The position numbers and the translations under genes are program-made. The notes beneath the pieces were generated by a model. The model saw only the letters and a program-made list of their open reading frames with translations. It had not been told where the DNA came from and ran no database searches. From the IMG/VR virus record IMGVR_UViG_2541047124_000012, positions 1 through 10,789 of that record: DNA of 10,789 nucleotides; one strand, written 5' to 3'. Numbering within the stretch: position 1 is the first letter of the stretch; each line of letters begins with the position of its first letter. This DNA comes from a virus (lineage: Duplodnaviria; Heunggongvirae; Uroviricota; Caudoviricetes). Shown piece after piece: positions 7,190 through 7,924 of the stretch.

Positions 7190-7924
7190 ATGGAGACTGT
7201 TTTTGACGCACTGAAAGCGATGGGAAAAGCCACGTCGGTATAGCTGGCTGCGCGACTTGATATCAGTCGTGAAGAAGTACTGAACGAGCTGTGGGAACTG
7301 AAAAAGGCTGGCTTCGTTGATAAAAGCGTATACACCTGGCGTGTGGCTGATAACAACGTTCAGCAGGAACAGCCAGCGCCAGAAGAAACCACCACGGCAA
7401 CAGAAGCGAAAATCTCAGAGTGCGATTTAACCGCGACGATTGAACAACGCGGACCACAAACGGCGGATGAACTGGCTACGCTGTTCGGTACAACATCCCG
7501 CAAAGTTGCTTCAACGCTGGCAATGGCAATCAGCAAAGGTCGTCTGATTCGCGTAAACCAGAACGGTAAAATTCGTTACTGCATACCAGGTGATAATTTA
7601 CCAGCAGAGCCGAAAGTTGAATCGGTAGCGGAAACCGATGGTAAAGCCTTTCCTCAGCCAGCCGGTGTTGCGTTACCGGTACAGAAAGATGCAACACAGG
7701 AAGATATTAAAACAGAAACTGTGGCGGACATTGTGCAGTCGCTGCCATCGTTTACTGCAACGCGAGAAGATGATTTGATTTTGCCATCGCTGCATATGGC
7801 AAATCGCGAACTGCGTAGGGCGAAGAATCATGTCCAGAAGTGGGAGCGAGTCTGCGCCGCGCTGCGGGAGCTGAACAAGCACCGGGATATGGTTGCCGGG
7901 ATTTGTCGGAAGTCCGGGCAATGA
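7190..7924 (+). pseudogene. Tandem winged-helix DNA-binding protein gene interrupted by a single in-frame amber codon (TAG 7241..7243)
   Basis: ATG 7190 with GGGAGG (7178..7183) opens a frame that is continuous to 7924 except for one TAG. The stop falls inside a recognisable HTH ([35 protein letters not shown]); a second copy of the motif follows ([33 protein letters not shown]). The track ORF 7343..7924 starts at GTG. Confidence 0.6.

Follow-up and report, generated by a model that had tools for sequence, protein, structure and literature searches.

A single-base amber allele of a DUF1627 (YdaW-family) gene in a PPompW-type prophage of Escherichia coli O157:H7

The DUF1627 gene and its prophage surroundings

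The window, by which we mean the whole stretch of 10,789 nucleotides analysed here, is identical to the entire contig AVRP01000050.1 of the draft Escherichia coli assembly GCA_000462165.2. It covers the early part of a lambdoid E. coli prophage of the Rac/PPompW type. Its genes run from a truncated integrase and a truncated RecE-type exonuclease through dicB, a DicA-type repressor, a Cro-like gene and YdaT to a DnaT-like O gene, the P gene, the DUF1627 gene that is our subject, a 54-codon ORF, a fimbrial pseudogene, paa and hok/sok.

The left arm (1-5005), with DinI, a truncated integrase (398-949, minus strand), dicB, DUF1391 and a different repressor, differs from that of the canonical O157:H7 PPompW prophage. 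The RecE/ExoVIII gene (931-2175, minus strand) is truncated as well, to 414 aa, compared with about 820 aa in O157 and O55. No complete RefSeq E. coli genome contained, in one piece and at high identity, the whole window or its part 1-5005. Either the contig is a naturally mosaic prophage, or the assembly joined prophage repeats into a chimera.

Both the window and O55:H7 CB9615 have an intact O-like gene (DnaT domain; 5662-6702 in the window), as do the PPompW phage records. In strain PV15-279, the source of the O157:H7 reference locus examined, an element of the IS1203 family interrupts this gene. The replication protein P gene (6695..7156, plus strand; Pfam Phage_lambda_P and RefSeq annotation) lies directly upstream of the DUF1627 gene. 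Its positions 6892-6908 hold five substitutions in 17 bp relative to O157:H7, to the O145-type PPompW phage and to two variant contigs described below (L003 and L004). Four of the five are spaced at 3 nt and fall on the third base of codons, and the P protein stays the same; from its sequence, the cluster looks like a short recombination patch.

Downstream of P, ATG 7190 opens a plus-strand frame of 244 codons to 7924 that is interrupted once, by the amber codon TAG at 7241..7243. The layout of 17 sense codons (7190..7240, translated as METVFDALKAMGKATSV and identical in the N-terminus of intact orthologues), the TAG, 226 sense codons and a TGA at 7922-7924 is far beyond chance. Upstream of the ATG stands a Shine-Dalgarno (SD) sequence, GGGAGGA (7178..7184, plus strand), whose anti-SD duplex energy of -10.3 kcal/mol falls below the 1st percentile of all window positions. 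The first-pass annotation had described the same start, SD, frame and single stop, and reading the sequence confirms them. The rest of the disrupted frame, 226 codons and the TGA (7244..7924, plus strand), matches Pfam DUF1627 with an E-value of about 1e-93. A minus-strand ORF of 143 aa (6925-7356) has no Pfam match and we treated it as spurious.

The 54-codon ORF that follows (7921..8085, plus strand) begins with an ATG that overlaps the DUF1627 stop (ATGA, 7921-7924). The annotations of both O157:H7 and O55:H7 call its product a hypothetical protein, and it has no Pfam match. Beyond it, the fimbrial-protein pseudogene (8090-8623) carries a frameshift and an internal stop, also present in O55:H7, and is followed by an intact paa/adfO adhesin gene of the AcfC family (8784-9542). 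A hok/sok type I toxin-antitoxin locus occupies 9731-10033, with an Rfam sok match of 103.9 bits at 9731-9880 and a HokD-type ORF at 9878-10033.

The protein encoded by the uninterrupted frame belongs to DUF1627 (PF07789, the YdaW family), scoring 308.8 bits over residues 84-236 (E=7.8e-93) with a cut-off of 28.1. The complete DUF1627 region thus still lies within the frame after the stop, and a 193-aa fragment called by some pipelines also matches the Pfam model. Across the stop, residues 4-46 gave Pfam matches to HTH_20 (24.6 bits, cut-off 27), TrmB (19.5 bits, cut-off 25.6) and a Crp-like HTH, all sub-threshold. FeoC reached 19.2 bits (cut-off 21), and we found no match of the DUF1627 protein above threshold to any curated winged-helix family in Pfam. 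A sequence search of the PDB likewise returned nothing significant, the best hit being FeoC (E=0.37).

An AlphaFold2 model of the intact 244-aa protein, built on 47 homologues, has a mean pLDDT of 63.9, with about 80-86 in both folded domains. It shows the winged-helix topology, a three-helix bundle with a beta-hairpin wing, twice. Predicted domain 1 (residues 1-52; 7190..7345, plus strand) comprises helices 4-11, 16-23 and 27-40 and strands 13-15 and 49-51. Predicted domain 2 (residues 77-131; 7418..7582, plus strand), which forms the N-terminal part of the Pfam DUF1627 region and has weak FeoC-like sequence matches in Pfam and the PDB, comprises helices 77-87, 92-99 and 103-115 and strands 120-124 and 127-131. 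The linker 136-195 is disordered in the model, and a long C-terminal helix is predicted for residues 192-243 (7763..7918, plus strand; pLDDT 74-89). The top 50 Foldseek matches in the PDB are all winged-helix proteins with a probability of about 1.0, at weak whole-chain E-values of at least 3.6e-3; they include MarR-like regulators, FeoC and the tandem winged-helix protein ScpB, and the highest TM-score to target given is 0.84, for FeoC 4awx_B. The model thus supports a tandem winged helix as the predicted fold, with DNA binding as a putative function. Residue 18 lies in the helix 16-23, the second helix of domain 1 and the first of its HTH, so that the amber codon cuts the first winged-helix motif as had been proposed from the letters alone.

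Ancestral state and distribution of the amber allele

An intact orthologue comes from O55:H7 CB9615, where the DUF1627 gene (1583924-1584658, WP_000450692.1) is a complete CDS of 244 codons in the prophage adjoining ompW. Of its 735 nt, 734 agree with the window gene, and the sole difference is a G at 7241, giving GAG (Glu) in place of TAG. Eleven records of PPompW and Stx2a phages share 99.9% identity with window positions 7100-8000. In the alignment with LC567818.1 (901 nt), a G at 7241 is again the single difference, and the CDS there is annotated as 244 aa.

The same residue is found across the family. Among the 120 closest family cluster representatives, 118 cover position 18 and all 118 have glutamate there; 117 of the 120 begin with METV, which goes against the possibility that orthologues naturally start downstream. 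K-12 YdaW also has Glu18, and an intact 252-aa paralogue in O157:H7 PV15-279 encodes it as GAA at the equivalent codon. The stop therefore sits at a conserved sense codon, one mutational step away (GAG to TAG). Since O55:H7, the PPompW phage record, the 118 relatives, YdaW and the paralogue all have glutamate, the TAG at 7241-7243 is the derived state, reached from an invariant glutamate codon by one G-to-T step. The first-pass annotation had suggested a very recent nonsense mutation and proposed looking for a sense codon in orthologues; the GAG or GAA of the relatives, together with the single-base difference from O55:H7, bears this out.

We searched complete E. coli genomes with a 57-mer centred on T7241. 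It was found exactly in 293 of 5426 genomes, while another 343 matched at 95-99% identity. In an evenly spaced sample of the matching rows, all 26 exact ones were labelled O157:H7 or carried no serotype, strain 493/89 being among them; rows with one mismatch belonged to O26, O111, O145, O121 and others. The base at 7241 is G in O145, O111, O26, O103, O121 and O55:H7. Window positions 7100-8000 are 100% identical to O157:H7 chromosomes, and the draft O157:H7 strain K1927 also carries the TAG. The allele is thus confined to one clade across independent assemblies, as far as serotypes were read from the 26 sampled rows of the 293. The truncated products and the intact 244-aa protein each occur on at least about 1000 public contigs. 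These comparisons date the mutation to the interval between the separation from the lineage of O55:H7 CB9615 and the radiation of the O157 clone as sampled.

O157:H7 genomes hold several members of the family. Five places match DUF1627 in PV15-279, and up to eight do so per genome. PV15-279 carries the amber allele in one prophage and the intact 252-aa paralogue (1659415-1660173) in a second, related prophage.

Two variant contigs deserve mention. In L003 (Logan ERR14980420_2045), a 12-bp in-frame deletion equivalent to window 7238-7249 removes codons 17-20 (V-amber-L-A) and restores an ORF of 240 aa (P0003). At all other sites compared, this contig equals the reference locus of O157:H7; it is one contig from one run, and the deletion may be a pseudo-revertant or an artefact. 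L004 (GCA_051684065.1, ACAAVC010000223.1; corresponding to window 6043-7894) carries the TAG allele and diverges towards its 3' end, with dense SNPs from window 7739 on and a DUF977 gene in place of the 54-codon ORF, the fimbrial pseudogene and paa. We found no counterpart of L004 above about 93% identity in complete genomes, and it is either a recombinant or a chimeric draft contig. We rejected the idea that it documents a spread of the TAG allele to another prophage, as it is a lone draft contig of uncertain standing. The allele is thus also seen on contigs whose left arm (the window, L007) or 3' end (L004) departs from the canonical O157:H7 PPompW prophage, so the history of the allele includes recombination or assembly chimerism. 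The questions around L003, L004 and the left arm leave the verdict on the gene as a pseudogene unchanged.

Downstream starts, suppressors and read-through

Databases present the locus as a coding gene. RefSeq/PGAP annotates a 226-aa CDS (WP_077744273.1) from CTG 7244, the codon directly after the amber, and other pipelines annotate a 193-aa CDS (UniProt A0A9Q7ED04_ECO57, on at least 999 contigs) from GTG 7343; both entries stand without a pseudogene flag. These products raise the possibility that the shortened gene is functional, through initiation at CTG 7244, GTG 7343 or ATG 7523, either after termination or independently of it. The protein made in this way would lack the first winged helix, could have an altered or dominant-negative activity, and would have been retained in O157:H7. 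The downstream frame is indeed intact across hundreds of genomes and keeps the complete Pfam DUF1627 region. A useful restart product would likewise lead one to expect this intactness and the fixation of the allele across the O157:H7 clone. The CTG at 7244 abuts the stop, and reinitiation after termination is mechanistically conceivable there.

The initiation signals argue against such a restart. We compared the anti-SD duplex energies of in-frame starts with the window background (mean -2.3 kcal/mol) and obtained -3.0 kcal/mol for CTG 7244, -0.9 for GTG 7343 and -0.1 for ATG 7523, against -10.3 for ATG 7190; no in-frame start downstream of the stop has a ribosome-binding site above background. 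A consensus scan of 6600-8800 gave no promoter-like site inside the DUF1627 gene, and the total counts were at shuffle level. A candidate promoter created by the mutation itself (TATAGC, 7239-7244) was rejected by eye, since the conserved T at its end is missing and no -35 element accompanies it. No orthologue naturally begins downstream, and an open frame is expected anyway in a gene that differs from the O55:H7 allele by one base. As for the database entries, they are the output of gene callers and not evidence of expression. With neither an SD above background nor an internal promoter, the CDSs from CTG 7244 and GTG 7343 are best read as gene-calling artefacts, extensions to the first permitted start. 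The earlier proposal of a restart at GTG 7343 (7343..7345, plus strand) was right in that the ORF listing gives this codon as the first canonical in-frame start after the stop. Reinitiation there is possible in principle, but its anti-SD energy compared with that of ATG 7190 speaks against it, and overall we consider a functional restart product very unlikely.

A different possibility concerns selection: inactivation of the gene, or an N-terminally truncated form without the first winged helix, might have been favoured while O157:H7 emerged from an O55:H7-like ancestor, or the L003 deletion might be a selected pseudo-revertant. In the first case, the effect could run via the region of the 54-codon ORF and the paa adhesin, or via an anti-defence activity such as that reported for K-12 YdaW; in the second, the gene would remain useful enough. 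The gene is accessory, its prophage is already decaying and the same genome holds intact paralogues in other prophages, which would explain why the loss is tolerated. The loss of the PPompW copy is plausibly neutral, and we regard a selective history as very improbable indeed.

The amber codon might also be decoded, by a suppressor tRNA or by programmed or context-dependent read-through, giving a full-length protein under some conditions. The stop is followed by C, and in E. coli TAGC reportedly terminates translation rather weakly, which makes some basal read-through likely. Prophages of O157:H7 do harbour tRNA genes. However, ARAGORN found no tRNA gene in the window. The tRNAs that it located in the flanking O157:H7 prophage all have CAT or TCT anticodons, and neither place yielded one with CUA. 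We further searched for glnV with the supE CUA anticodon, supE being the sole suppressor locus covered. Exact copies of the supE-type glnV occurred in 155 of 5424 genomes. Each of the 40 matches listed is a K-12 laboratory strain; these include C600, DH5alpha and DH1, known supE strains whose recovery indicates that the query works. E. coli is not known to have a pyrrolysine system. Programmed read-through would combine a conserved stop with a recoding signal, whereas this stop is unique to the O157:H7 allele and every relative has glutamate. No Rfam family lies near the amber site, and the gathering scan of the whole window matched sok (9731-9880) alone, which led us to reject a known RNA element or recoding signal. 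The tRNA results, with the listed supE matches confined to K-12, likewise led us to reject the suppressor-tRNA reading, and the suggestion of amber-suppressor-dependent expression finds no support here. Decoding of the amber in either form is exceedingly improbable.

Finally, although the window is a short contig from a draft assembly whose left arm as a whole matches no complete genome, the same T in 293 independently finished genomes and in a second draft O157:H7 assembly, with the truncated products on at least about 1000 contigs each, practically rules out the sequencing or assembly error that had also been considered.

Reading the locus as a lineage-specific pseudogene

Among the readings offered at first pass, the recent nonsense mutation therefore stands, whereas a sequencing error is refuted, suppressor dependence is unsupported and a restart at GTG 7343 lacks backing in the sequence. 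We conclude, with a probability of about 0.92, that the DUF1627/YdaW gene is a young nonsense pseudogene of the O157:H7 lineage, created by a single G-to-T change at 7241. The conclusion is carried by the substitution itself, its polarity, its distribution by lineage and the failure to find suppressor tRNAs or restart signals.

In the lineage leading to O157:H7, after the split from O55:H7, a G-to-T transversion at 7241 turned the GAG codon of the invariant Glu18 into the amber TAG. Ribosomes starting at ATG 7190 would be released by RF1 after 17 residues, and full-length protein would be essentially nil beyond basal read-through. We infer that neither the full-length nor a truncated protein is made, a reading that comes from the sequence. 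With 680 nt left untranslated, expression of the overlapping 54-codon ORF (7921..8085) would probably be lowered: its putative translational coupling to the DUF1627 gene is probably lost, and Rho-dependent polarity may contribute. The rest of the frame would still be open because there has been too little time for further lesions, as expected from a gene one base away from its O55:H7 allele. The surroundings show decay too. The IS1203 element in the O gene and the fimbrial pseudogene are typical of O157:H7, and in the window the integrase and RecE genes are truncated.

One known member of the family is YdaW (b1361, PF07789) of the Rac cryptic prophage of K-12, which, like the window gene, follows the replication genes (ydaU/ydaV in Rac). 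It is 91% identical to the window protein over residues 1-147 and then diverges. YdaW has also decayed in a cryptic prophage, where it keeps its N-terminus and has a truncated, divergent C-terminus (186 aa); in the window copy, by contrast, a nonsense mutation interrupts the gene at codon 18 and the 3' part is intact. One list of uncharacterised putative transcription factors includes YdaW (PMC9308461). When overexpressed, YdaW was scored as blocking RcaT, the toxin of retron-Sen2 (bioRxiv 10.1101/2020.06.22.160242). A DUF1627 gene is also one conserved neighbour of the PasA and PasC sRNA loci (bioRxiv 10.64898/2026.05.13.724894). Our search of the literature on DUF1627 and ydaW returned no functional characterisation beyond such screens and lists.

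The PPompW locus of O55:H7 CB9615, which adjoins ompW, shares O, P, the 54-codon ORF, the fimbrial pseudogene and paa, in matching order, with the locus of the window and of O157:H7. Unlike the window, the PPompW copies of CB9615, O145, O111 and other STEC have GAG at codon 18 and encode the complete 244-aa product. Classical amber (sus/am) phage mutants likewise carry a single UAG in an otherwise intact phage gene, but they are laboratory conditional-lethals grown on supE or supF hosts, whereas the allele described here is fixed in a natural clone and lies in a defective prophage. Another parallel is given by the pseudogenes of the O55:H7-to-O157:H7 transition: here too, a point lesion is fixed in the clone and absent from CB9615, in a prophage with IS1203 and other pseudogenes. 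The difference is that RefSeq annotates this gene as an ordinary CDS from CTG, with no pseudogene flag.

Public annotation thus hides the lesion in the CDSs 7244-7924 and 7343-7924, and as these are not flagged as pseudogenes, pangenome and protein-family analyses treat the fragments as genuine variants. Base 7241, which is G in O55:H7 and T in O157:H7 including strain 493/89, is a clean clone-specific SNP marker. Nonsense pseudogenes in cryptic prophages of young clones are familiar, and this gene is another of them. Its biological weight is very small: it adds one more point lesion to a decaying prophage of a young pathogenic clone.
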